A stretch of 64,000 nucleotides of DNA from an uncultured Bacteroidota bacterium (GCA_902776365.1 CACYPU010000002.1:131180-195179), one strand, 5' to 3'; positions 16,680-63,320 are shown, counted from the stretch's first letter. The notes: generated by a model not told the origin, from the letters alone. Numbers and translations are program-made.

Positions 16680-16713
16680 TTTTGCCAGTTCAAAAAATGT
16701 TCGTATCTTTGCA
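16680..16713 (+). repeat. 34-nt promoter-containing direct repeat, copy 1
   Basis: TTTTGCCAGTTCAAAAAATGTTCGTATCTTTGCA is identical to 17222..17255. It contains a TTTG -33-like box and a TATCTTTG -7 box (16704..16711). Confidence 0.9.
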
Positions 16714-17221: not shown

Positions 17222-17255
17222 TTTTGCCAGTTCAAAAAATGTTCGTATCTTTGCA
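17222..17255 (+). repeat. 34-nt promoter-containing direct repeat, copy 2
   Basis: Perfect copy of 16680..16713. Its -7 box is at 17246..17253, upstream of the L31 pseudogene. Confidence 0.9.
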
Positions 17256-17326: not shown

Positions 17327-17537
17327 ATGAAAAAAGGAATTCATCCCGAAAACTATCGCCTCGTGGTGTTCAAAGACATGTCCAACGACCACATGATTCT
17401 CACCAAGAGCTGTGCCAACACCAAAGACGAACACCTCGCACCCCTTCTTCACTGGCAAGCTGAAACTCGTTGACACCGCTGGTCGCGTCGACAAGTTCAT
17501 GAACAAGTACAAAAAGTACGCCAAGAAGGCCGAGTAA
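17327..17537 (+). pseudogene. rpmE2: 50S ribosomal protein L31 type B, internal deletion plus frameshift
   Basis: Frame 1 reads [35 protein letters not shown].., then a nonsense tail and TGA at 17471. Frame 2 continues [35 protein letters not shown]. The total span is 211 nt, which is not a multiple of 3. About 17 central residues are missing. Confidence 0.8.
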
Positions 17538-50919: not shown

Positions 50920-53900
50920 TTATTTTACTAATTCGTTTGCTATCAATTCCGCCTGTTTCAGCACCGTCTCGGTGGCCAATGCCTGCATGTCGGGCGGGTA
51001 GCCATACTTGCGCAACAACCGCTTCACCGCCACTTTCATCTTAGCCCTTACGTTCTCCTTGATGGTCCAGTCGATGGTGCTGTTCTTACGAATGGTCTCG
51101 GTGAGTACCACAGCCAGCTCTCGCAGCTTGTCCTTGCCCATCAACTCGCGGGCACTCTCGTTGTCGGCTACGGCGGTATAGAAGGCGTATTCGTAGGTTT
51201 CCAGCCCCATCTCCTGTGCCGCGCTGTCGCTGGCCACTATCTGTTTGCTGAGTTTGATAAGCTCGTCTATTACCTCGGCGGCGGAGACTATTTTATTGTG
51301 GTAACGTGTGATGGAGCCGTCGAGCATCTCCATCAACGTGCGACTCTCTACGAGGTTGTATTTCGACCGTGCCTTGATTTCATCTTCTAGCAACTTCCGT
51401 AGAACTTCAAGAGCGATATTCTTGTGTTCCATGCCTTTCAACTCCATCAGGAATTCCTCAGAGAGGATGGAAATATCGGGTTTCTTGATGCCGGCGGCAT
51501 CGAAGAGGTCTATCACCTGTTCCGACACCAGCGCTTGGTCTATCACCTGCCTAATGGTGGTCTCAATCTCCTCGTTGGTGTGTCCGCCGCCTTTGGCATC
51601 GAACTTGCACAGGCGTGCTTTCACGGCTTGGAAGAAAGCCACTTCGTCTTTTACATCCATTGCCTCCTCATTCGGAATAGCCAATGCGAAAGCCTTTCCC
51701 AAGGAGGTTACCTCGTTGACAAACCTTATCTTGCCGTCTTCGAGTCCGAGGATGAAATCTTCGGCTTTGAGTATCCACGACAACTTGCCTTTGGTGTCGG
51801 AAGAGAAATATTGCGGCCATTCTAACCCGTGCAGCATCTGTTCCACCACCTCCAGCTTCTCTTTCATCAGTTCCACCGCCTGTGACTGCTGCTGTGTGGG
51901 GTCGCCCTTGCCGCCGCTGTCGGAATAGAACGAAAGCGCTTTCTTCAGGTCAGCAGCGATGCCGAGGTAGTCCACCACCAAGCCGCCGGGCTTGTCCTTA
52001 TAGACGCGGTTCACGCGGGCAATGGCCTGCATCAGATTGTGGCCCTGCATGGGCTTGTCGATATAGAGGGTATGCAGACAGGGCACGTCGAAGCCCGTGA
52101 GCCACATGTCGCGCACTATCACCATTTTCAACTCATCATCAGGATCTTTCATCCTTTCGGCTAGCAGATGGCGGTCGGCCTTGGTGGTATGGTGCTTGGC
52201 AATGGCGGGACCGTCGGAGGCCGAGGTGGTCATCACCACCTTCAACGCTCCTTTGCGCAGGTCGTCGCTGTGCCATTCGGGCCGCAGCTTGATGATTTTG
52301 TCGTAGAACTCCACGGCAATCCTGCGGCTCATGGCTACAATCATGGCTTTGCCCTCGAATACTTGCTGGCGTGCCTCGAAGTGTTCCACGATGTCGCGGG
52401 CGATGTTCTTCACACGGTTGGGGCTGCCTATCAGGGCTTCCAGCTGTGTCCACTTGGCTTTGGCCTTCTGCACATCGTCCAGTTCCTTCACATCGAGTTC
52501 CTTGTCCAGTTCTTCCACCAGCTTGCGTCCTTCGGCGCTCAACTCCACCTTGGCCAGACGGCTCTCGTAGTAGATACGCACCGTGGCGCCGTCCTCCACC
52601 GCCTGTGCGATGTCATAGACGTCGATGTAGTTGCCGAAGACAGCGGGTGTGTTCTTGTCGCTCAGCTCGATGGGCGTGCCGGTGAAGCCGATATAGGTGG
52701 CGTTGGGCAGCGCGTCGCGCAGGTATTTGGCGAAGCCGTACTTGATTTCGGAGCCCACCACCTCGTCGGCTTCGTTGCGCACATCCTTGGTCTTGGCGCC
52801 GAAGCCATACTGAGTGCGGTGCGCCTCGTCGGCTATCACCACTACGTTGGTGCGGTCGGTAAGCCTGTCGTATATATTGCCCTCTTCGGGCTGGAATTTC
52901 TGTATGGTAGTAAAAACCACGCCACCCGACTGCACCGCAAGCAGACCTTTCAAATGTTCACGGCTATCCGCCTGCACGGGTGTCTGTCGCAGCAGTTGTT
53001 TGGAGGAGACGAAGGTCTCGAAGAGCTGGTCGTCGAGGTCGTTGCGGTCGGTGATGACCACGATGGTGGGGTTGTTCAGCCGCTGCACTATCTTGCCGGC
53101 ATAGAACACCATCGACAGCGACTTGCCGCTACCCTGCGTATGCCATACTACACCGGCGCGGTGGTCGCCCGTATGCTGTTCACGCACTGTCTTGAAACCG
53201 AAGTTCTCCGGTGATTCGGCAGCCATCGGCATACTGCTGTTGATGCCCGAGGCCCTCAATGTGGACTCCACGGCTTTGTTGACGGCATAGTATTGATGGT
53301 AGGCCGCCAGCTTCTTCACCGTGGTGATAGTGATTTGGCCCGTGGCTTTGTCCTCGTGTTTGTCTTTTTCAAAGACGGTGAACGCCTGCACCAGGTCAAG
53401 CAGCGTCTCGGGGTTCAGCATCCCATTTAGCAGCACCTCCAACTCGCCTTTCAAGTGTGAGGCTATGGTCTCGCCATCTTCGCTTTTCCATGCGGTGAAT
53501 CGGCTCAGTCCCGACGACAGGGTGCCAGCCTTGGCCTCCAAGCCGTCGCTGATTACGATGACCTCGTTATATCTGAACAGCATCGGTATTTGCTCCTTGT
53601 AGGTGCCTATCTGGTCGTAGGCCTTGGTGATGGTGGCCTCCTCGTCGGCGGCATTCTTCAGTTCCATCACCACCAGCGGCAAGCCGTTGACGAACAGCAC
53701 CATGTCGGGCCGCAGGTTATGACCATTCTCTATGACGGTGAACTGGTTGACCACCGTGAACTCGTTGTTCCACGGGTCGTCGAAGTCCACCAGCCACACC
53801 TTCTTTCCGCGCTCCTCACCCTCTTCGTACACCGACACCGTCACGCCCTGTGTCAGCAGCTCGTGGAACTGCTCGTTGTCGGTCAGCAGATCGGTGGAGC

Positions 53901-54132
53901 CGATGCGCAGCACCATCTTGACGGCCTCGTCGAGCACCGCAGCAGGCAGCGACGGGTTGAGCCGCCGCACCGCTGCCTCCAGCTTTTCGCGCAGCACCAC
54001 CTCGCCCAACGATGTCCGCATAGGCGACTGTCCGTCCGGCGCGATATCAGGGCCGTAGAGGTATTCATACCCACGGCTCTGCAGTATCTCGATGGTCATC
54101 TGCTCAATGTCCGATTCCGTCAGCTTGGTCAT
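50920..54132 (-). CDS. hsdR: type I restriction endonuclease subunit R
   Basis: SF2 helicase motifs (HTQGSGKS, VIADEAHRTQ) and an HsdR N-terminal nuclease region. The ATG at 54132 (MTKLTESDIEQ) is preferred over the TTG at 54156. Confidence 0.9.
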   Translation of the reverse strand: MTKLTESDIEQMTIEILQSRGYEYLYGPDIAPDGQSPMRTSLGEVVLREKLEAAVRRLNPSLPAAVLDEAVKMVLRIGSTDLLTDNEQFHELLTQGVTVSVYEEGEERGKKVWLVDFDDPWNNEFTVVNQFTVIENGHNLRPDMVLFVNGLPLVVMELKNAADEEATITKAYDQIGTYKEQIPMLFRYNEVIVISDGLEAKAGTLSSGLSRFTAWKSEDGETIASHLKGELEVLLNGMLNPETLLDLVQAFTVFEKDKHEDKATGQITITTVKKLAAYHQYYAVNKAVESTLRASGINSSMPMAAESPENFGFKTVREQHTGDHRAGVVWHTQGSGKSLSMVFYAGKIVQRLNNPTIVVITDRNDLDDQLFETFVSSKQLLRQTPVQADSREHLKGLLAVQSGGVVFTTIQKFQPEEGNIYDRLTDRTNVVVIADEAHRTQYGFGAKTKDVRNEADEVVGSEIKYGFAKYLRDALPNATYIGFTGTPIELSDKNTPAVFGNYIDVYDIAQAVEDGATVRIYYESRLAKVELSAEGRKLVEELDKELDVKELDDVQKAKAKWTQLEALIGSPNRVKNIARDIVEHFEARQQVFEGKAMIVAMSRRIAVEFYDKIIKLRPEWHSDDLRKGALKVVMTTSASDGPAIAKHHTTKADRHLLAERMKDPDDELKMVIVRDMWLTGFDVPCLHTLYIDKPMQGHNLMQAIARVNRVYKDKPGGLVVDYLGIAADLKKALSFYSDSGGKGDPTQQQSQAVELMKEKLEVVEQMLHGLEWPQYFSSDTKGKLSWILKAEDFILGLEDGKIRFVNEVTSLGKAFALAIPNEEAMDVKDEVAFFQAVKARLCKFDAKGGGHTNEEIETTIRQVIDQALVSEQVIDLFDAAGIKKPDISILSEEFLMELKGMEHKNIALEVLRKLLEDEIKARSKYNLVESRTLMEMLDGSITRYHNKIVSAAEVIDELIKLSKQIVASDSAAQEMGLETYEYAFYTAVADNESARELMGKDKLRELAVVLTETIRKNSTIDWTIKENVRAKMKVAVKRLLRKYGYPPDMQALATETVLKQAELIANELVK

Positions 54133-54137
54133 AAGTG

Positions 54138-55157
54138 CTATATGTTTAGTTTCCAATATCCGTTCTTGTCCTCGCCTATACGTATTAGAATACCCATTTC
54201 TTTCAATGCCGCAATATTTCGTGTAATAGTTGATCTGTCCACATCAAGAGTTGTTGCCATTTCATCGTATGTGGTATAAGGATTATTTCTTAGAATATCT
54301 ATAATGGCAGCTTGTCTCTTAGTTATATTTACAGGTGCATTTACAGGTGCATTTACAGGTGCATTAAGCGGCTCACCTTTATGTTGCAGTACGGACTTAT
54401 GTATCTCCTCCAGCATAAAGTCGATGAAGGGACCACACTCGCCCTGCTTGGTACTTTGGGCGATGGCGTCATAGTAGGCCTGCTGGTTGGAATAGACCAT
54501 ATTCTCCACAGGCAGGTGCGCAAAAGCAGGGTGCCAGCGGCTGAGGATGAGCGACTGCCACAGGCGGCCCATACGTCCGTTGCCATCGATAAACGGATGG
54601 ATAAACTCGAACTCATAATGGAAGACACAGCTGCGCACCAACAGGTGGTCGTCGGCATTCTTCAGCCAGTCGAAGAGGTCGGACATCAGCCCATGCACCC
54701 TGTCGGATGGAGGGGCCATGTGTACCAGGCCGCTCTCGGAATAGACGCCTACGCCGCCCCTGCGGAAATGACCTGCGTCATCGGTCAAGGCGGACATCAT
54801 CAGTCCGTGAGCCCGCAGTAGGTCGTCCATCGAGAAGGGGTCGAGCTTTTCAAACTCATCATACACCCGTATGGTGTTCTTCACCTCCTGAATCTCGCGG
54901 ATGGGTGCCACCACCGTCTTGCCGTCAAGGATATCGGCCACCTCACTCTCCCGAAGACGGTTGCCCTCTATGGCCAATGAGCTATGGATGGTCTTGATAC
55001 GGTTGGCCTTGCGCAGCCGCAAGGCATCGCTCTGCTCCATACGGATGGCAAACCGCTCCATCTGGGCGGCGATATCCGCCACCAGCCCCACTGCCTTCGC
55101 CGACAATGTGAAAGGTGGTTTGTATCCATTATATGTCTTTGTCTTTTTTTCAGCCAT
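54138..55157 (-). CDS. Fic family protein (class II, N-terminal inhibitory helix) with C-terminal wHTH
   Basis: Fic motif HPFIDGNGRMGR, inhibitory motif SLAIEGN, and a C-terminal HTH (..VDRSTITRNIAALKEMGILIR). Confidence 0.85.
   Translation of the reverse strand: MAEKKTKTYNGYKPPFTLSAKAVGLVADIAAQMERFAIRMEQSDALRLRKANRIKTIHSSLAIEGNRLRESEVADILDGKTVVAPIREIQEVKNTIRVYDEFEKLDPFSMDDLLRAHGLMMSALTDDAGHFRRGGVGVYSESGLVHMAPPSDRVHGLMSDLFDWLKNADDHLLVRSCVFHYEFEFIHPFIDGNGRMGRLWQSLILSRWHPAFAHLPVENMVYSNQQAYYDAIAQSTKQGECGPFIDFMLEEIHKSVLQHKGEPLNAPVNAPVNAPVNITKRQAAIIDILRNNPYTTYDEMATTLDVDRSTITRNIAALKEMGILIRIGEDKNGYWKLNI
54328..54363 (-). repeat. 3 perfect 12-nt repeats (NAPV x3) in the Fic linker
   Basis: TTTACAGGTGCA x3. 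Confidence 0.9.
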
Positions 55158-55233
55158 AATTGTTAGTCTCCCTTCTTCGATCCCTCTATGTGGGTTCTAT
55201 GATCCTTCGGTGATGGTTCGGTGATATTCAACA

Positions 55234-55257
55234 AATAGGATTATGATTAATCCTATT
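55234..55257 (-). terminator. 10-bp hairpin overlapping the stop of the 812-aa gene
   Basis: AATAGGATTA/TAATCCTATT with a weak U tract. Confidence 0.3.
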
Positions 55258-57691
55258 TTTCTTGACCACCATCTGTTCCTCCTGTAATTCTTCTGATATA
55301 TCTTTGCTTTCCTTTTCCGACTTTTTTCAGTTCCTCTTCTATTTGAGTATATTTTTTCTCTTTTTCTTCATTTCTCAACTTCATTTCTTCATATGTGCTA
55401 ATCATTTTCTCTGCCGCTGGAATCATCTTATACCCTTTGCTCTGTATCTCTTTTGCAAAACTTACAAAATCATCCAAATTATAATTCAGTGTAAGAGCAG
55501 TTTTAGAGTCGTTCTTATCTGATTCATCACTATCGTTCGAATAAATCAATTCCTCATTCTTGGTCATTAATTCATGTATTTCCTTCTTTAACTCCCTTTT
55601 TAATCTAGGTAATTCTTTTCCTCGTAAATCAACACCTGACTCAATTAGAGATTTTATTTCCTCCCAACTCTGATTTACAGCCTCTGCCAAGAAGGGATTT
55701 CCTAATAGATTTACAATCGCTTTATTTGACGAATCAAACAAACCTATTTCTGACAATAATGCCACTAGCACTTTTGGTCTTGCCACTACAGAGCTATAGA
55801 GATTAACTTCTTTTGCACATCTTATTGCACGACTTGAACTTGTAACGAGATATGCGATTCCAAATAACATCTGATTATTTCTTTGGGGAATATTTTTATT
55901 GAGTTCTCTAGCCAATAGGTAAAGTTCAGCGTCAGTTTTTGCAATGCGCCAATTCTCCTCAGGAGTTCTATATGCAGCCTTGGGCGTTTTAATTGTTTCG
56001 TCGTATATCAACTGGGTTAGATTATCACAATCTACCTCGCTAATACTTACACTATCAATCAAGGACTCATCTCCAATCACAACACCTTTCGGAAGTCTAT
56101 GTTCCATTACTTCTAACATAAAATTGTATTCATCAGTCTCATCATAAATATTTTGTATATAGGATGAGAATGTGTCATCTGAATACTCATTATCATTACG
56201 GAGAATATTAATATAATAATCTATAACAAAAACATTTGATAATTTTTCATATACCACAGTTTCATTTACAGCAGTAAAAGTATTCCTAAAATAATTGAAA
56301 TTTCTTTTTGCGAAACTAGCATGAATGACAACTTCTTCTACTACACTCTTTGGTATATACACTTTACAACCATTATTTAACAACTCTTTTAGAAGGACTG
56401 TGTATATGTCACTAAACGGCCCGTATTTAACCATACAATTAAGGACAAAATCAGTATCCAAGATATACATCTTGCTTGCGAATGTTTTTTTCTGGAATCC
56501 TGCCAACATTGGATCCAATCTCATCAATTGAGTTCCAATATATGCTCTTGCCCATAATAAAATTGTTTGGAATTGTTCATCATTTGGCTTGCTTAGTATT
56601 TCTCCAAGTCCATACACAAGGCATTCACCCAAGTCAGGTTGGATGCTATCAGTAAGTATTTTTATCAGTTCTTTCTGACGTACCATCCCTGAAACAATAT
56701 TATCTTCATTGATTGCCAGGTCTTGCCCATAATATTTGAAAAATAAATTCAATGTTTTTTGTATATTATTCCATATTTGTTTGATTTCACTATCACTTAA
56801 AGGTATTCCATCTGCAAGTTCTTGCATTTTTGTAATAATATCATTAATCAGGGCATTTGTTCGTTGTTCCATATGAGAAATGCCTTCCATCATCTCAGAC
56901 TTTGCTTTCGTTGATGCTGAGATTTTTTCCTCTTCGTTACTTATAAGACCCTCCCTTTTCAATCTTTCTATCGATGCTCTTATCTGCGATTCGTCAATAA
57001 TACAGCCAAATTCCTTATGGAATTCGTCAATAATTTCGCTTCGTGACAAACCACCCGAATATGTTGAAATTAATGACAATATGGATTTATCAAACAAGGA
57101 TTTTTTTTGTGTTTTTTCTTTTAGCTTCGGAGAAAGTGAAAAAAGCAACGTGCTTTTAATCATCGAACTTGTTAGCAAACTTTCCCCATCTGTTGAGAAA
57201 TAATTATTTTTCAAAAAATCCTCCTCTATTTGAGCTTTAATGTTGGGGAAGTATCTTGAAATAATATCTTTGTGTTCTCCTGTCACAAGAATAAATGTTG
57301 ATAAATCAAATATCTGTAATGTCTTTGAATGCTCCATTCTGAATTTGCTTTCCAATCCCTTTATGCTATTTACAGATTGTGAAGTCACAAAAACCAGTTC
57401 ATCAAATACAACATTATTATCATTTAATTTTTTTACGGTAGCTTTTATTTTTGCATTTGAATCCTTCTGCATTGTAAACTGGAATACTCGGCTTATTTTT
57501 GTTTCGTCCTGATAAATTTCAGAACTTATAGCATCAACACCATCATCTTTAATGCCACCGACTTTTCTTATTCGAGGAAATCCGTAATATCCCATAACCT
57601 CCAAACACAACTGCTCGAATTTAAAGAAATCAGTATAATTACTTAATGCAAGTTCAATTATATCCATATTATATAATTTAATATTATTCAC
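55253..57691 (-). CDS. Mrr-like PD-(D/E)xK nuclease / wHTH / PIN-like / coiled-coil fusion protein (uncharacterised)
   Basis: 812 aa. Residues 24-76 read FEQLCLEVMGYYGF..GGIKDDGVDAIS..RVFQFTMQK (Mrr_cat-like). Residues 215-251 look like a wHTH. Residues 408-625 have YILDTDFVLN, VVEEV and KTDAELYLLA (PIN-like acidic residues). The tail is Lys/Glu-rich. Confidence 0.6.
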   Translation of the reverse strand: MNNIKLYNMDIIELALSNYTDFFKFEQLCLEVMGYYGFPRIRKVGGIKDDGVDAISSEIYQDETKISRVFQFTMQKDSNAKIKATVKKLNDNNVVFDELVFVTSQSVNSIKGLESKFRMEHSKTLQIFDLSTFILVTGEHKDIISRYFPNIKAQIEEDFLKNNYFSTDGESLLTSSMIKSTLLFSLSPKLKEKTQKKSLFDKSILSLISTYSGGLSRSEIIDEFHKEFGCIIDESQIRASIERLKREGLISNEEEKISASTKAKSEMMEGISHMEQRTNALINDIITKMQELADGIPLSDSEIKQIWNNIQKTLNLFFKYYGQDLAINEDNIVSGMVRQKELIKILTDSIQPDLGECLVYGLGEILSKPNDEQFQTILLWARAYIGTQLMRLDPMLAGFQKKTFASKMYILDTDFVLNCMVKYGPFSDIYTVLLKELLNNGCKVYIPKSVVEEVVIHASFAKRNFNYFRNTFTAVNETVVYEKLSNVFVIDYYINILRNDNEYSDDTFSSYIQNIYDETDEYNFMLEVMEHRLPKGVVIGDESLIDSVSISEVDCDNLTQLIYDETIKTPKAAYRTPEENWRIAKTDAELYLLARELNKNIPQRNNQMLFGIAYLVTSSSRAIRCAKEVNLYSSVVARPKVLVALLSEIGLFDSSNKAIVNLLGNPFLAEAVNQSWEEIKSLIESGVDLRGKELPRLKRELKKEIHELMTKNEELIYSNDSDESDKNDSKTALTLNYNLDDFVSFAKEIQSKGYKMIPAAEKMISTYEEMKLRNEEKEKKYTQIEEELKKVGKGKQRYIRRITGGTDGGQEK

Positions 57692-57702
57692 TATATTTAA
57701 TA

Positions 57703-58941
57703 TTATCCGATTTTCACTTCGCCTAACATCAGTCTAGGCAGTAATGCATCGCGTTGTGCAGACAGCGCGAGTATCTGTTGTTTATTTGCATTTATTTTAT
57801 CAAAATAAGGTTTTACTTGGTTGTTGAAGTCAATAACAACTTTTTCATCTGTTGGTACATTCCAGTCCATCTCATAAAGCGCTGCCTTATAGTTTAGGTT
57901 GTGTATTCCTGAACTACCATTCTCTAAGTTGAAGAATTCGCCCTGCTTGTGTAGATAACGGAAAAAACAATAAACAAAGAATGTGTGTCTTTCATCAACT
58001 CGTAATAATCTACAAAAGTTTGAAAACACAATAGGGTAATCGAACAATTGCTTTACTCCTTCATTAATATATGCAACTCTGCCTGTGGAGCAAGTATCCG
58101 TACCGCCAGATATTTCTAGGATAATATCTCCATTGTTCGGCTTGATTTTCTCGTATTTGCTTGGCTTTACATATCGAAGAGGTGTTCTTGTCGCAATCCC
58201 GTCATTCAAGTCAGCAACATCCGCACCCCTTAGGCATCGTACTGGCATACCGCTCTCACCTTCAGGTGTCTCCGTTCCCCATTCTCCACCTATTGTTTCA
58301 ATAACATAGTCTCCCAGTTTGCCTTCTTTCCAGGTGGGGTCGGGGTTTTCGATGAAGTAGTGGCGGAAGAGGGTTTCGGCGAGGGCTTCAAGGGTCGCGT
58401 TCTCCCGATTCAACAAATCTATCTTGTCATCCAACGAACTCAACACCCCCGCAATCCGATTCTGCTCGTCAAGTGGCGGCAATTTTAAAACAATATTTTC
58501 AAAATCACTTTTATTCACAATAGGAACAGCTGTCCCATCCCCACCTAATACTCTCAATGTATCATAAGCATTCAAAAGCGAGTAATAGACAAAATCATTA
58601 TCGTACTCTTTGTACGGAACAATTGCGTTTATTTGCTGATTCGTAATACACATGACGTTATTCATAACCACTTTCCCCATATCAGAACCTATGCAGGTCA
58701 CAAGGATGGATTTGGGTGGCAATACTTTCTTTTTTAGTCGTTCAAGGCCGGATACCGAAAGCTTGCGAATACTATCCTTCGCATATTTACCATAATTACA
58801 ATAATCCGATGGGGTTATAAAAAGAAAATTATTCCCCCAATCTTCAGGATTACGAACCGAAGGTGTCTTCCCTGTAATAATTTCTCCTATTTCTCCCAAC
58901 CTATATTCTTTCCATTCACTCATAGGCAGTATTTCTAACAT
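57703..58941 (-). CDS. hsdS: type I restriction-modification specificity subunit
   Basis: Two target-recognition halves are separated by the conserved helix LPPLDEQNRIAGVLSSLDDKIDLL, with a C-terminal ..RDALLPRLMLGEV. The alternative start is at 58923. Confidence 0.9.
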   Translation of the reverse strand: MLEILPMSEWKEYRLGEIGEIITGKTPSVRNPEDWGNNFLFITPSDYCNYGKYAKDSIRKLSVSGLERLKKKVLPPKSILVTCIGSDMGKVVMNNVMCITNQQINAIVPYKEYDNDFVYYSLLNAYDTLRVLGGDGTAVPIVNKSDFENIVLKLPPLDEQNRIAGVLSSLDDKIDLLNRENATLEALAETLFRHYFIENPDPTWKEGKLGDYVIETIGGEWGTETPEGESGMPVRCLRGADVADLNDGIATRTPLRYVKPSKYEKIKPNNGDIILEISGGTDTCSTGRVAYINEGVKQLFDYPIVFSNFCRLLRVDERHTFFVYCFFRYLHKQGEFFNLENGSSGIHNLNYKAALYEMDWNVPTDEKVVIDFNNQVKPYFDKINANKQQILALSAQRDALLPRLMLGEVKIG

Positions 58942-58985
58942 AAAGTATTCATCATTACCAATCTATAGCTGATAAAAAAATTGTA

Positions 58986-59906
58986 TTACATAAACTCGAA
59001 TGCCAACAATGTTTTTACTCTCTGTTTCTCTTTTTCTGTCATATGTCGAGCAATATAAGGATATGTATTAATAAACACTTTCTTCATTTTTTCAAAGGCT
59101 GTTTTATCCATATCATGTTCATCTTGAATACTATTAATAAAGGCCATCAATCTCATTATCCATACAGTCGGATTGCATAATTCATCAATAGATTCCCATC
59201 CACCATCATTAAGGCCAGACTTTCTATATTTTTCTCGTAATAGATGGTCACACACTCCACAGCATGCAAAATACATATCTTTATAAACAGTTTTTTTCTC
59301 TTTTTCAAAAGTATCACTGTCATACAAGAGTACATAGTTTCCATGCTCACTCTCTAACAATAAGTTTTTACCACAATAATCACAACATAGCTCGGCATTA
59401 TTGTCAAATATTTTTGACGGTGTCGGATTTTCAATTTGATACTTTTTAAATGATGTGGGGAAATATCTACAAGCAATCTTGTGTCCATCAAGATTGTTTA
59501 ATAAAAAGGATTCTATCTTTTCGCGATCAAAAACGAGATAATGCTCTTGTCCTTGTAAAATACCAGACAAAGACGTGGATGCCAACGTTGAATAAACCCC
59601 CATAAAACCATCACAATGATGTTGCTTTAACCTATCGCTTATATTTATCTCGTCACTATCATTTACAGCACGACCTGAATGAGCAAAATGTTTGCAGCTC
59701 ACTAACCAACGGATTGTATACTCACTTGTTATGCCTTTTATTACTTCATCAACAATCAAATCCTTTTTTCCGTCAGCTCCTCTGTCTGGATCTTGTACGA
59801 TTCTATATCCAAGGTAAGATAAAAAATCTCTTGTAAGCAGTTCAAAGGTATCTTGCAAACCTGTGCCTTTGTTTGCTTCTGGTATTTCTTTAAAATCTAA
59901 AATCAT
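58986..59906 (-). CDS. Mrr-like PD-(D/E)xK domain protein with CCxxC..CCxxC module (uncharacterised)
   Basis: 306 aa with FELLTRDFLSYLGY..GADGKKDLIVDE..IRWLVSCKH, then CCDYCGK (174-178) and CCGVCDH (215-219). Confidence 0.6.
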   Translation of the reverse strand: MILDFKEIPEANKGTGLQDTFELLTRDFLSYLGYRIVQDPDRGADGKKDLIVDEVIKGITSEYTIRWLVSCKHFAHSGRAVNDSDEINISDRLKQHHCDGFMGVYSTLASTSLSGILQGQEHYLVFDREKIESFLLNNLDGHKIACRYFPTSFKKYQIENPTPSKIFDNNAELCCDYCGKNLLLESEHGNYVLLYDSDTFEKEKKTVYKDMYFACCGVCDHLLREKYRKSGLNDGGWESIDELCNPTVWIMRLMAFINSIQDEHDMDKTAFEKMKKVFINTYPYIARHMTEKEKQRVKTLLAFEFM

Positions 59907-60139
59907 ACTTTTCTCTTTTTTTATTACATCTTTTCTATTACGACATTGTACCTTACTATATTTTTTTTCTACCTAATAATTATAACTAATAATCAATACT
60001 TTTTCATAAAGATTACGCGGTCGTTGATTTTATCGGTGGGGGGCCTGGTACAACAGCTCACGAATGTACGTATTATCGGTGTGGTTTTCTATCACAGTAT
60101 TCATCTCCTTTTTATTAATATTTTTTCCTTTCGCTCATA

Positions 60140-60397
60140 TTACAGTTTTTCTTTGATATCCTCTATCTCTTGTTCCAATTTATCACGCTCCTCAAAATGT
60201 TTGTTCTTTACTAAGCCAGCCAACGGAGAGAATGGACTAATATGCGTTATTTCATTCAATCGTTCGTAACGTTCTTCCTTTTTCCGTAGTTTCCTTTGCA
60301 AATAGCCTTTGCTATTTCTTACCATAAAGACTAATGTTGCCACCATCACCACTAGTGATGCGCATGCGATTATTATTGTTAGTGTTTCCGTACTCAT
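60140..60397 (-). CDS. small single-TM coiled-coil protein
   Basis: 85 aa with an N-terminal TM (LTIIIACASLVVMVATLVFMV) and a charged helical tail. Confidence 0.45.
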   Translation of the reverse strand: MSTETLTIIIACASLVVMVATLVFMVRNSKGYLQRKLRKKEERYERLNEITHISPFSPLAGLVKNKHFEERDKLEQEIEDIKEKL

Positions 60398-60420
60398 ATC
60401 GTTTCTATTCCTTATTTTTC

Positions 60421-60454
60421 AGTTATTAAGTAATCCTTAATAACTGGTTTTTTA
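60421..60454 (+). terminator. plus-strand intrinsic-terminator-like hairpin
   Basis: 11-bp perfect stem CAGTTATTAAG/CTTAATAACTG followed by G TTTTTT. The orientation is opposite to the surrounding operon. Confidence 0.45.
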
Positions 60455-60558
60455 ATGTTTATTTGTTACCGTCACTTAATTCTCTTTCGCTTGGCAATTG
60501 TTCCACAAGTTGTGGAATTATTTGTTTCTCAAGCACCCCCAAGTTGAGGGTGTTTTTC

Positions 60559-61680
60559 CTATTTAGATATGTTTTCCTCGATCAGTTTTTGTAGTTCCTC
60601 TTTGCTCGGCAAATAGGTCTGGTATTTGCTGGCGAAGATTTGGTTGTTGTCTTTCGGTAGGGTAATCTCAACCATTGCATCGCTTTTGTCAGTACACAAC
60701 AAGATTCCAATGGTCGGATTCTCCTCCTCGGTTTTCACGAAGCGGTCGTAGTAGTTGACATACATCTGCATCTGCCCAAGATCTTGATGCTTCAATGTTC
60801 CTCGTTTGAGGTCTATCAACACAAATGCTCTAAGCAGACGATTGTAAAATACCAAGTCCACACGGAAATGCTGCTCGTCGAAGGTAAACCGCACCTGCCG
60901 CCCGACAAAAGTAAATCCCTTACCCAACTCCAGCAAGAAAGTCTGCAGATGGTCTATCAGACGCTGTTCCAACTCGCTCTCGCTATATTGTGGCAACTCT
61001 TTCAGCCCAAGGAACTCCAACACGTAGGGGTCTTTCACCACATCCTCAGGCTTCTCTATTATCTGTCCTTTTTGTGCTAGCGACTTCACTCCCTTCTTGT
61101 CTTTGCTAAGAGCCAACCGTTCATACAACGAACTGTCGAACTGTCGTTGTAATTCCCGCAGACTCCAGTTATTCTCCGTGGCCTCAATCTCATAGAAACG
61201 CCTTTCGTCGGGGTTCTCAATGCGCATCAGCTTCAAATAGTGCGACCAACTGAGGGTGAAATGCAATTTGTCAGACGCTGTCTGACCTTTTTGAGAAGAT
61301 TCCGCAGACAGTGTCTGCGAAATTGGAGAAATCCGAGACGGTGTTGCGGAATTTTCTTCTTTCAATGATTTTCTAGACGGTGTTTGGAAAATTTGAATTC
61401 TCTGCGAATAGATTACATAGAACTGTCTCATTTGTTCTATGTTTCTTTCAGAGAATCCTTTTCCGAATTTCCTTGTAAGCCTATTGGACAATTGCCTAAT
61501 AACAGCTTTCCCATAATTAGCTCGATAGTTGCCTTGCTGCTCATCCTCTACAATCATCCGACCTATCTCATAATAGGTATAGACCATGGCAGTGTTGACC
61601 GCCGTGATGGTGCGTTTGCGGGCTTCTTCTATCAGATGCTCTATCTTTTCTCCTAAATCTATCTTCTGTATCTGCTCCAT
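60559..61680 (-). CDS. PDDEXK nuclease domain protein (YhcG/DUF1016 family)
   Basis: 373 aa with an N-terminal DUF1016-like helical region and a C-terminal ..RVDLVFYNRLLRAFVLIDLKRG.. nuclease core. Confidence 0.8.
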   Translation of the reverse strand: MEQIQKIDLGEKIEHLIEEARKRTITAVNTAMVYTYYEIGRMIVEDEQQGNYRANYGKAVIRQLSNRLTRKFGKGFSERNIEQMRQFYVIYSQRIQIFQTPSRKSLKEENSATPSRISPISQTLSAESSQKGQTASDKLHFTLSWSHYLKLMRIENPDERRFYEIEATENNWSLRELQRQFDSSLYERLALSKDKKGVKSLAQKGQIIEKPEDVVKDPYVLEFLGLKELPQYSESELEQRLIDHLQTFLLELGKGFTFVGRQVRFTFDEQHFRVDLVFYNRLLRAFVLIDLKRGTLKHQDLGQMQMYVNYYDRFVKTEEENPTIGILLCTDKSDAMVEITLPKDNNQIFASKYQTYLPSKEELQKLIEENISK

Positions 61681-61682
61681 AA

Positions 61683-63203
61683 TTAGTCAATCTTTATTTT
61701 TGACAGGTTCTCCAGTATCACTTTGTTCAGGCGTTCTTCTTCTTTCAGCTGGGCTTCCAGTTCGGCGCGGAGGGCGGTGAAACGTTCGGCGAAGTTGAAG
61801 TCGTCTTCCTCTTCGGGTAGACCGACATAACGGCCGGGGGTGAGCACATAGTCCAGTTCGGCCACACGGCTGACGGGCACCGAGGCACAGAAGCCCGGCA
61901 CATCGGCATAGTCCTTAGACTCGTCGCGCCAGCGGTGGTAAGTGTCGGCGATGGTGTGGATATCTTCCTCTGTCAGCTCGCGTGTGCGACGGTTGATAAG
62001 ACGGCCCATATTGCGGGCATCGACGAAGAGTATCTCGCCAGCCCTCTTTTGGCGGTTGCGGGTGACGAACCACAGGCAGGCGGGTATCTGTGTGTTAAGG
62101 AAGAGCTTGGCGGGCAGGTTGACGATACAGGCGATGAGGCCTTTGTCGATAAGCGCACGACGGATTTCGCCTTCGCCTCCTGTTTTTGACGTCAGCGAGC
62201 CTTTGGCCAGAACGAAGCCTGCCTGCCCGTTGGGGGCTAGGTGATAGATAAAGTGTTGTATCCAGGCGAAGTTGGCATTGCCGGCAGGCGGTACGCCATA
62301 CTGCCAGCGGGCGTCGCCACGCAGCTGGTCGCCACTCCAGTCGCTGTCGTTGAACGGCGGGTTGGCAATGACGAAGTCGGCCTTCACGTCCTTGTGGGCA
62401 TCGTTAAGGAACGATCCTTCGGTGTTCCACTTCACCTGCGAGGCGTCGATGCCGCGGATGGCGAGGTTCATCTTGCAGAGGCGCCAGGTGGTCTGGTTGC
62501 TCTCCTGACCGTAAATGGAGATATCCTCCACACGTCCCTGATGCTGACGCACAAACTTGTCGCTCTGCACGAACATGCCGCCCGAGCCACAACAGGGGTC
62601 AAGTACACGGCCGTGATAGGGTTCCAGCATCGTCACCAGCAACTCCACAACGCTCCTCGGCGTGTAGAATTGTCCACCCTTCTTGCCTTCTGCCAGAGCA
62701 AACTCGCCAAGGAAATACTCGAACACGTGCCCAAGCAGGTCGGCGCTGCGCGTGCTGGTGTTCTGCAGGGTAGAGTTGCCGATAAGGTCAATCAGCTCGC
62801 CCAGCGACGTGGGGTCAAGGTTGGGACGGGCAAAAACCTTGGGCAGCACGCCTTTGAGCGTCTTGTTCTCACGTTCGATAGCATCCATGGCATCGTCAAT
62901 AAGCTTGCCAATCTGCGGGTTCTTGGCATCGGCCACCAGACGGCTCCAGCGGGCACTCTCAGGCACATAGAACACATTCTCGGCTGCATACTCCTCGCGG
63001 TCCTCCGGGTCGGCACCGTCAACTTGTTGCTTCAGCAGCTCATTGTACAGTCGTTCAAATTCAACAGAAATATAGCGCAGGAATATCAGTCCCAGCACCA
63101 CATGCTTGTATTCCGCCGCATCGATGTTTTTGCGCAGTTTGTCCGCCGCCTTCCACAATCGCTTTTCCAGCGGTTCCTCTAAAGTCTCCTTTTTCTTAGC
63201 CAT
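61683..63203 (-). CDS. hsdM: type I restriction-modification methyltransferase subunit M
   Basis: The start is trimmed to MAKKKETLEEPLEKRLW. It has the HsdM N-domain (YKHVVLGLIFLRYIS), motif I DPCCGSGGMF and motif IV NPPF. Confidence 0.92.
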   Translation of the reverse strand: MAKKKETLEEPLEKRLWKAADKLRKNIDAAEYKHVVLGLIFLRYISVEFERLYNELLKQQVDGADPEDREEYAAENVFYVPESARWSRLVADAKNPQIGKLIDDAMDAIERENKTLKGVLPKVFARPNLDPTSLGELIDLIGNSTLQNTSTRSADLLGHVFEYFLGEFALAEGKKGGQFYTPRSVVELLVTMLEPYHGRVLDPCCGSGGMFVQSDKFVRQHQGRVEDISIYGQESNQTTWRLCKMNLAIRGIDASQVKWNTEGSFLNDAHKDVKADFVIANPPFNDSDWSGDQLRGDARWQYGVPPAGNANFAWIQHFIYHLAPNGQAGFVLAKGSLTSKTGGEGEIRRALIDKGLIACIVNLPAKLFLNTQIPACLWFVTRNRQKRAGEILFVDARNMGRLINRRTRELTEEDIHTIADTYHRWRDESKDYADVPGFCASVPVSRVAELDYVLTPGRYVGLPEEEDDFNFAERFTALRAELEAQLKEEERLNKVILENLSKIKID

Positions 63204-63227
63204 GAATTCTTTATGATTAACAAAATG

Positions 63228-63235
63228 CAAAAATA
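63228..63235 (-). promoter_or_regulatory. -7 box TAnnTTTG for the R-M operon
   Basis: Minus-strand TATTTTTG, 25 nt upstream of the ATG at 63203. Confidence 0.6.
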
Positions 63236-63320
63236 CGAATTTTCCACGACATGGACAAATTATATTTAAAAAGGTTTTCAACATAGCATCAACCTGCAAT
63301 CACCCTACCATCTCCTATCA

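Follow-up and report, generated by a model that had tools for sequence, protein, structure and literature searches.

A type I restriction-modification operon as a probable scaffold for exchangeable candidate defence genes in an uncultured Bacteroidales bacterium

Results

A type I operon with five additional genes

The stretch of DNA analysed here, 64,000 nucleotides (nt) from an uncultured gut Bacteroidales bacterium (GCA_902776365.1, CACYPU010000002.1:131180-195179; hereafter the window), contains a type I restriction-modification (R-M) operon in which five extra genes sit, on the same strand, among the three core genes hsdM, hsdS and hsdR. Eight co-directional minus-strand open reading frames (ORFs) span 50920-63299 in the order hsdM - YhcG - P85 - P306 - hsdS - P804 - Fic - hsdR, at the positions given in a preliminary description made by eye, and every one is intact and full length (Table 1). 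Downstream of the locus lies phoH, and upstream a manC-like nucleotidyltransferase gene in divergent orientation.

Table 1 Features of the operon, with positions counted from the first nucleotide of the window (aa, amino acids).
Feature	Position	Strand	Description
hsdR	50920..54132	-	Restriction/translocase subunit; ATG 54132, longest ORF from TTG 54156
Fic	54138..55157	-	Fic-domain protein with C-terminal winged helix, SoFic-like; next to hsdR
Exchanged tract B	55080..58479	.	3' half of hsdS, P804 and first bases of fic; 99-100% identical to locus L021
P804	55253..57667	-	804 aa, slot-2 cargo; ATG 57667 (812-aa ORF from GTG 57691)
hsdS	57703..58941	-	Specificity subunit with two target-recognition halves; Methylase_S (Pfam), Specificity_I (PADLOC)
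Exchanged tract A	58309..60139	.	P85-P306 spacer, P306 and 5' half of hsdS; 96-99.8% identical to locus L098
P306	58986..59906	-	306 aa, slot-1 cargo; Mrr/MspJI-like nuclease domain (~1-157) and C-terminal Cys4 zinc-ribbon domain
P85	60140..60397	-	85-aa single-pass membrane/coiled-coil protein; 83 clusters of relatives
YhcG	60559..61680	-	YhcG/DUF1016 PD-(D/E)xK protein, slot-1 cargo; PADLOC candidate PDC-S02
hsdM	61683..63203	-	Type I methyltransferase subunit, 506 aa; ATG 63203; HsdM_N and N6_Mtase
Promoter consensus	63228..63259	-	Bacteroidetes-type, TTTG ... TAnnTTTG; just upstream of hsdM ATG 63203

Judged by its sequence, the R-M system is complete and looks functional. HsdM matches N6_Mtase (E 1.1e-110) and HsdM_N (3.2e-28) in Pfam and MTase_I (2.7e-191) in PADLOC, and the PADLOC Specificity_I models align with HsdS over residues 7-411, its full length. 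HsdR comprises HSDR_N, SWI2_SNF2, T1R_D3-like and T1RH-like_C regions, corresponding to an N-terminal nuclease, a superfamily 2 motor and a C-terminal domain; it scores 622.9 bits against TIGR00348 of NCBIfam (7.5e-187; cut-off 284.55) and 1268 bits against REase_I of PADLOC.

The pattern TTTG-N17-23-TAnnTTTG has nine occurrences in the window where chance would give 1.0 (pattern scan), and the only copy within the locus is the one preceding hsdM, in line with the single TAnnTTTG promoter proposed previously. Co-transcription of all eight genes is plausible. A scan of the locus for sigma-70 promoters and terminators gave nothing above chance, the sigma-70 model being ill-suited to Bacteroidetes, and Rfam and tRNA scans had no match in the locus. 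The preliminary description also reported tight junctions, which is true of part of the operon. The 2-nt gap between hsdM and yhcG is as described, whereas two others depend on the choice of start codon: fic and hsdR are 5 nt apart if hsdR starts at its ATG, but the longest ORF would overlap fic, and the 11 nt between hsdS and the 812-aa ORF applies only to the GTG start, the gap being 35 nt with the ATG. We favour the ATG because all homologues are ~804 aa long and start at the ninth codon of the 812-aa ORF. Elsewhere the gaps are wider (yhcG-P85, 161 nt; P85-P306, 233 nt; P804-fic, 95 nt).

Two of these spacers (60398-60558 and 59907-60139, minus strand) are long and AT-rich and contain hairpins, for example a 12-base-pair stem at 60419-60447, and a short GC-rich patch lies at 60033-60052 inside the P85-P306 spacer; such features might be terminators, internal regulatory sites or the scars of recombination. 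The idea that the yhcG-P85 spacer holds the remains of a YhcG pseudogene was rejected, the match being just 8 aa long (E 0.19).

Two slots with variable occupants

Comparison with related operons defined two cargo slots, one between hsdM and hsdS (slot 1) and one between hsdS and hsdR (slot 2), whose alternative occupants mostly match known or candidate defence models (Table 2). Locus L098 shares its chromosomal context with the window (manC, R-M operon, phoH, a GHMP kinase gene and an aldolase gene), and we regard it as the orthologous site in a related organism because the manC..phoH context is the same and the backbone identity is 86-93%. At this site SLFN/AlbA_2 replaces YhcG and AAA_13 replaces P804, while P306, Fic and the P85-like gene are retained. 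The cargo is thus variable between orthologous hsdM..hsdR loci, with both slots differing; the preliminary description had called for this comparison, which supports its reading.

Table 2 Occupants of the two cargo slots in the window and in related operons.
Locus	Slot 1 (hsdM-hsdS)	Slot 2 (hsdS-hsdR)
Window	YhcG, P85, P306	P804, Fic
L098	SLFN/AlbA_2-HATPase, P85-like, P306	AAA_13 ATPase (PDC-S06), Fic
L021	YhcG, P85-like (P306 absent)	P804, Fic
L001	SLFN/AlbA_2, 100-aa protein	P804, Fic
L003	YhcG, Trypsin_2 (PDC-S45)	P804 only
L018	YhcG, OLD/GajA-like ATPase-nuclease	P804, Fic
L019	Weak partial YhcG-like ORF	P804, YhcG
L099	SLFN/AlbA_2, P85-like	NACHT protein
L100	SLFN/AlbA_2, P85-like	SIR2_2 (PDC-S25), SLFN-like protein

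The closest genome record for P804 is L021, from an uncultured Bacteroidales metagenome-assembled genome from red deer, which is related but not identical to the window. Its operon is closely related (hsdM and hsdR 87-89%) but its flanks fail to align with manC or phoH; L098, similarly diverged, retains both flanks. It is therefore possible that the operon as a whole changes chromosomal site as well.

A mosaic of two near-identical tracts

The GC (guanine plus cytosine) content is 0.568 in hsdM, 0.562 in hsdR and 0.577 in phoH, against 0.330 in P804, 0.337 in P306, 0.372 in P85 and 0.404 in hsdS. The windowed profile is not flat, with values of 0.30-0.36 over 55250-60500, so the AT-rich block placed by eye at roughly 55160-60560 is real; among its neighbours fic is host-like (0.514) and yhcG intermediate (0.444). 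The same split recurs in all other embedded loci measured, namely five R-M-embedded P804 loci and one P306 locus (L016), where the GC content of hsdM/hsdR is 0.48-0.57 and that of P804 or P306 0.33-0.34.

DNA identity to the two closest operons is strongly uneven. Relative to L021, it is 88.9% for hsdM, 87.1% for hsdR, 93.6% for fic and 96.1% for yhcG, and rises to 99.6% for P804 and 98.5% for the 3' half of hsdS (777 nt). Measured in 200-nt windows, identity to L021 is 99-100% from 58279 to 55280 and then drops sharply to 78-95% across fic and hsdR. Relative to L098, hsdM (86.7%), hsdR (86.9%) and fic (86%) are again diverged, and the near-identical parts are P306 (99.8%), the 5' 633 nt of hsdS (98.9%) and the P85-P306 spacer (95.7%). 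The two tracts so delimited (A and B, Table 1) match different genomes and overlap in hsdS nt 463-633, the conserved centre between the recognition halves.

On these comparisons the AT-rich block appears to consist of two recently exchanged tracts, and each half of hsdS seems to have travelled with its adjoining cargo gene. Separate acquisition of the cargo, as proposed in the preliminary description, is supported both by the variable occupants and by tracts that are 99-100% identical to other genomes beside hsdM and hsdR at 87-89%. We infer homologous recombination through the conserved genes as the simplest exchange mechanism. A transposon or shufflon origin was rejected, there being no flanking repeats and no hsdS inversion repeats at the locus.

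P306, a candidate solitary nuclease

P306 has relatives in 680 clusters, some of which carry PF04471. Its Pfam score against Mrr_cat is 19.0 bits (cut-off 21), and in a Foldseek search its N-terminal domain matched the catalytic domains of AspBHI (6.5e-5) and MspJI (1.3e-4) with probability 1.00; the structural model of P306 has a predicted local distance difference test score (pLDDT) of 82. The PD-(D/E)xK fold with a D ... x-K motif is present, and residues D45, D49, S70-C71-K72, C175, C178 and C215 are invariant, with a Cys4 cluster in the C-terminal domain. This latter domain (~170-306) had no Pfam or fold match, the Foldseek alignments covering only ~150-180 columns. Neither P306 nor P85 had a match in PHROGs or a convincing one in PADLOC v2.

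Relatives of P306 occur in varied settings. The one in L016 separates hsdS from hsdR in a second type I operon, the one in L012 has an integrase and a paralogue as neighbours, and the one in L014 belongs to a conjugative-transposon-like region. Another is the near-sole cargo of a 4.9-kb mobilisable Acinetobacter plasmid, and a Sinorhizobium plasmid carries one that is annotated as a restriction endonuclease. No partner methylase accompanies them on the 4.9-kb plasmid or in the other contexts examined. P306 would be a solitary Mrr/MspJI-like endonuclease guided by its zinc-ribbon domain and, because it has no partner methylase, either modification-dependent or infection-triggered.

A narrower version makes P306 a type IV modification-dependent endonuclease, cutting modified phage DNA that evades restriction as TgvAB and BrxU do. 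The best structural matches, AspBHI and MspJI, are modification-dependent enzymes, the absence of a methylase partner fits, and other type I operons are known to harbour type IV enzymes (PMC11411939). TgvAB of the Vibrio cholerae island VPI-2 and BrxU are type IV enzymes lodged within modification-based systems (PMC11411939); P306, similarly, is a methylase-less endonuclease candidate inside a type I operon, which it could complement, and its nuclease fold resembles that of modification-dependent enzymes. They differ in that both known systems belong to the GmrSD family, whereas P306 joins an Mrr/MspJI-like nuclease domain to an unrelated zinc ribbon and would be modification-dependent by prediction. 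The resemblance is, however, limited to a generic Mrr-like catalytic fold, the catalytic residues read S-x-K in place of (E/Q)-x-K, and neither Pfam nor Foldseek detected an SRA-like or other known modified-base reader, the C-terminal domain matching nothing. On balance we regard the type IV assignment as rather unlikely, if the best placed of the alternatives weighed here.

P804, a large modular protein with Mrr-like and PIN-like domains

P804 belongs to a rare family: a word-indexed search of 5.8 billion proteins found relatives in only 55 clusters, none with a Pfam domain, and an exhaustive profile search extended the family to 277 representatives at E <= 1e-30 and 775 at E <= 1e-10. P804 has no match in NCBIfam or PHROGs, none above the Pfam cut-offs and none better than E 3.5e-3 in PADLOC. 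From the N-terminus it comprises an Mrr-like domain (1-150), a winged helix (~185-255), a helical region, a PIN-like domain (~392-660) and long C-terminal helices; the AlphaFold model has the same layout, with alpha/beta folds in the N-terminal domain and at ~400-650. The earlier by-eye assignments, Mrr-like for P306 and Mrr/PIN-like for this protein, held up, for P306 in the Foldseek search and for P804 in domain scans whose matches to the window protein itself are weak.

Within the PIN-like region, D404 and T405 are invariant and D406, E445, H449 and D579 are present in at least 90% of 86 diverse relatives (21-72% identity). Conserved acidic residues thus lie at the ends of core strands and helices, as in the PIN domain-like superfamily. 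PIN-clan families dominate the weak Pfam matches of P804 relatives, also when only residues 392-660 are scanned: among 24 relatives this domain-only scan found PIN_3 in seven, PIN_12 in four and PIN (best 1.1e-5), PIN_4 and PIN_8 in three each, and P804 of the window itself matched only PIN_5, weakly (0.0085). In the N-terminal domain, Mrr_cat matches 20 of 65 relatives (best 1.3e-7) and the window protein at only 0.028; the motif there is D45 ... Q63-x-T65, with a nearly invariant K73 ten residues on. We assign Mrr-like and PIN-like domains to P804 on this basis and infer nuclease activity.

The family falls into two classes, a full-length form of ~790-810 aa and one of ~610-655 aa without the first ~160 residues. 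About half of the P804 superfamily takes the shorter form, without the N-terminal Mrr-like domain (P0204-P0322; L027, L028, L031, L034), and because this class exists the winged-helix/PIN core can apparently stand alone. In a natural chimera, P0257 (812 aa), this core is joined to a P306-type N-terminal domain (57% identity over 157 aa, 3e-60), which suggests that P306 and P804 take their nuclease domains from a common set of exchangeable modules.

Matelska et al. 2017 (PMC5499597) described PIN genes whose transcription is coupled to that of type I subunits. The putative PIN-like domain of P804 would fit the DUF4935/PIN_12 group of that work, in which a VapC-group PIN-like core has conserved acidic residues and, behind strand 2, an extended helical insert. 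DUF4935 proteins are, however, ~350 aa long and usually monocistronic, whereas P804 has 804 aa with extra Mrr-like, winged-helix and coiled-coil parts, and the similarity is below threshold.

The context of P804 was surveyed in 70 distinct family loci, 28 of which have at least 3 kb on both sides; a locus was counted as R-M linked when hsd genes lay within 6 kb. The preliminary description had allowed that these genes might prove scattered with no R-M linkage, and the survey found both situations: seven of the 28 loci are linked and 21 are not. Five of the seven are embedded between hsdS and hsdR, all in Bacteroidales and with at least 61% identity to P804. A sixth, on a viral-collection contig, directly follows the hsdR of another type I family, a further locus of this kind having a short flank, and the last is 4.6 kb from hsdR (L088). 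The viral-classed contigs (L036 1561-10403; L037 and L038 2133-10367; IMG/VR) carry relatives with 28-36% identity 32-69 nt downstream of hsdR, and could represent prophage-borne R-M systems with P804 or mis-binned sequence.

P804 relatives with 57-58% identity and no hsd genes nearby adjoin a tyrosine integrase and an IS66 transposase (L041) or lie near a group II intron reverse transcriptase (L042). More distant relatives have HEPN_AbiU2 and E1/JAB genes or an integrase as neighbours, or are carried by a ParAB/relaxase element, and among the genes surrounding 13 stand-alone loci PADLOC recognised CBASS, Hachiman, type III R-M and PD-T4-6. A tblastn search of annotated plasmids and phages with P804 had no match. 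From these contexts P804 is best described as an autonomous, mobile module whose association with type I systems recurs without being obligate.

The position of P804 nevertheless recalls the anticodon nucleases PrrC and RloC, latent nucleases whose genes lodge between type I subunit genes. On this model P804 would be a guard, held inactive by HsdM/S/R and freed to kill the infected cell when a phage anti-restriction protein disables the enzyme. It begins 23-37 nt after hsdS in five related loci, the second hsdS half and P804 travel together, and of the distant relatives noted above those in L036-L038 directly follow hsdR in another type I family and that in L088 lies 4.6 kb from hsdR. In L098, moreover, the same slot holds an AAA_13 ATPase of the ATP-binding cassette (ABC) type, and PrrC is a member of the AAA_13 Pfam family. 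Against a guard function stand the 21 well-flanked loci without hsd genes, the relatives beside an integrase, transposase or group II intron, and the similar second hsdS half (77-78% identical) in L099 and L100, both of which lack P804. The N-terminal ABC-type ATPase domain that marks PrrC and RloC is also missing, as Pfam, NCBIfam and PADLOC gave no ATPase family match for P804 or P306, and P804 has no detectable sequence similarity to either protein. We consider a guard role improbable and prefer to see P804 as an autonomous module.

Fic, P85 and YhcG

YhcG matches DUF1016_N (6.6e-42) and YhcG_C (5.8e-60), both above the Pfam cut-offs, and PDC-S02 in PADLOC (6.8e-146). P85-type genes (L021 8465-8743; L098 9543-9773; L099 7001-7279; L100 3952-4230) lie directly upstream of hsdS, or of P306 plus hsdS, in every context examined (the window and these four loci), which suggests that P85 is a fixed feature of this Bacteroidales type I lineage and not free cargo.

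Fic matches the Pfam Fic family (1.1e-20) and the PADLOC model SoFic (2.4e-47), and its HxFx(D/E)GNGRxxR motif is present (HPFIDGNGRMGR; HPFIDGNGR). A score of 65.4 bits against NF046030 of NCBIfam (cut-off 550) marks it as a relative and not an equivalog. The divergence of fic from its L098 counterpart is at the level of the backbone (86% DNA identity), and the gene seems to have resided long-term outside the recently exchanged AT-rich block. The linker between Fic domain and winged helix (residues ~255-270) contains a tandem NAPV-NAPV-NAPV repeat, and the L098 copy is 6 aa longer (345 against 339 aa).

Fic, and possibly P85, could instead be regulators or accessory parts of the R-M lineage, for example a DNA-binding Fic that controls hsdR expression or modifies HsdR. 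Its host-like GC content (0.51) and backbone-level divergence would suit such a role, as would its winged helix and its place directly upstream of hsdR in the window, L001, L018, L021 and L098; for P85, relatives recur upstream of hsdS in five loci. Fic is, however, missing from L003, L019 and L099, all with intact hsdR, and its SoFic match is to a stand-alone defence model, which leaves the accessory role with a small chance only.

Discussion

The type I R-M operon probably doubles as a scaffold on which defence cargo is exchanged, and the earlier reading of an R-M operon interrupted by variable, separately exchanged same-strand cargo is supported. The same-strand genes of both slots would probably be read from the hsdM promoter. 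Exchange would proceed by homologous recombination anchored in conserved hsdM, hsdR and the hsdS centre, with the consequence that each hsdS half moves with the neighbouring cargo gene. The type I enzyme would supply methylation-based restriction, and the cargo, renewed by recombination through the conserved operon genes, would provide independent second-line defence modules expressed alongside it. Among these, YhcG may act as a PD-(D/E)xK nuclease and Fic as a SoFic-like adenosine monophosphate (AMP)-transferase. P804 may be a single-chain sensor-effector in which the winged-helix/helical part senses an infection cue and nucleic acid is cut by the PIN-like domain and the swappable N-terminal Mrr-like domain. 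Nuclease activity and any anti-phage effect of the cargo are predictions from sequence. Homologues also occur outside the R-M host system (P804 in 21 of 28 loci, P306 in plasmid and mobile contexts), implying autonomous function.

Several observations weigh against this picture. Neither direct or inverted repeats flanking the cargo nor recombinase genes were found at the locus, recombination is read from identity patterns, and the gaps of 161 and 233 nt could house internal promoters or terminators. The AlphaFold model of P804 is moderate (pLDDT 68, predicted template modelling score 0.44), with a pLDDT of 80-90 over residues 400-600; whole-chain Foldseek against the PDB returned only winged-helix regulators, none below E 1e-3, and PDB profile searches with the whole P804 family or the PIN region alone gave nothing meaningful. 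The PIN call thus consists of sub-threshold Pfam matches and conserved residues. In the Mrr-like domain most relatives have Q-x-T/S in place of the canonical Q-x-K, three keeping Q-C-K, and the activity of this domain is uncertain. The neighbourhoods of stand-alone P804 genes also contain housekeeping genes.

That the cargo consists of selfish, addictive toxin-like genes or decaying remnants, hitch-hiking by recombination with no host benefit, would accord with the AT-rich, recently transferred tracts, with relatives on mobile elements and with the discussion of PIN toxins next to type I R-M genes in the context of selfish mobile elements (Matelska et al., PMC5499597), but this is very unlikely given that no ORF is truncated or disrupted, the putative active-site residues persist down to ~25% identity, validated or candidate defence families occupy the same slots of sister loci, and no antitoxin partners are evident.

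A wider proposal, which we make tentatively and with less than even confidence, joins two claims. The operon would act as a recombination scaffold, with hsdM, hsdR and the hsdS centre as homology arms, so that an hsdS half and a second-line defence gene are gained in one event; and P804 and P306 would represent an undescribed modular class of single-protein defence nucleases sharing interchangeable N-terminal Mrr-like modules, joined in P804 to a winged-helix/PIN core recurrently associated with type I enzymes.

Type I R-M operons with embedded defence genes are known from earlier work (PrrC, rlo genes, TgvAB, guilt-by-embedding), and the present operon belongs among them. Payne et al. 2024 (bioRxiv 10.1101/2024.01.29.577857) systematised the 'guilt-by-embedding' pattern and added the PDC models to PADLOC; in their survey more than half of the embedded genes were unexplained and 96.7% lay in the orientation of the host system. 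The present locus likewise has same-orientation genes between hsdM, hsdS and hsdR, of which YhcG (PDC-S02) and Fic (SoFic/PDC-S04) match PADLOC-DB v2, with PDC-S06, PDC-S25 and PDC-S45 in sister loci; P804, P306 and P85, lacking convincing matches there, set it apart. When the main text of the preprint was searched by term, recombination, hotspots, GC content and hsdS did not come up; neither the GC split nor the association of hsdS halves with cargo is therefore discussed in it. Intervening rlo and mlo genes were reported in hsd loci of Campylobacter jejuni (Miller et al. 2005, as cited in PMC5183652). Those loci differ in phylum and gene families, and here near-identical tracts place the exchange boundaries at the hsdS centre.

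What appears to be new is two uncatalogued families (P804 and P306), the domain swap linking them, and the evidence for joint movement of each hsdS half with its neighbouring cargo. The locus overturns no current view. Gut and rumen Bacteroidales live under heavy phage pressure with a largely uncharted defence repertoire, and it offers two candidate defence nuclease families absent from the searched catalogues, together with natural variants that amount to "with and without" alleles at one chromosomal site. If confirmed, joint exchange of specificity halves and defence genes would explain how defence repertoire and methylation specificity diversify in step.

Other features of the window

Outside the operon, an exact 34-nt repeat containing the Bacteroidetes promoter consensus occurs at 16680-16713 and 17222-17255 (plus strand). 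One copy precedes a lipoprotein-like ORF and the other a gene for an L31-like ribosomal protein; because this second gene is split over two overlapping frames (17327-17473 and 17412-17537), it may contain a frameshift or an assembly error.

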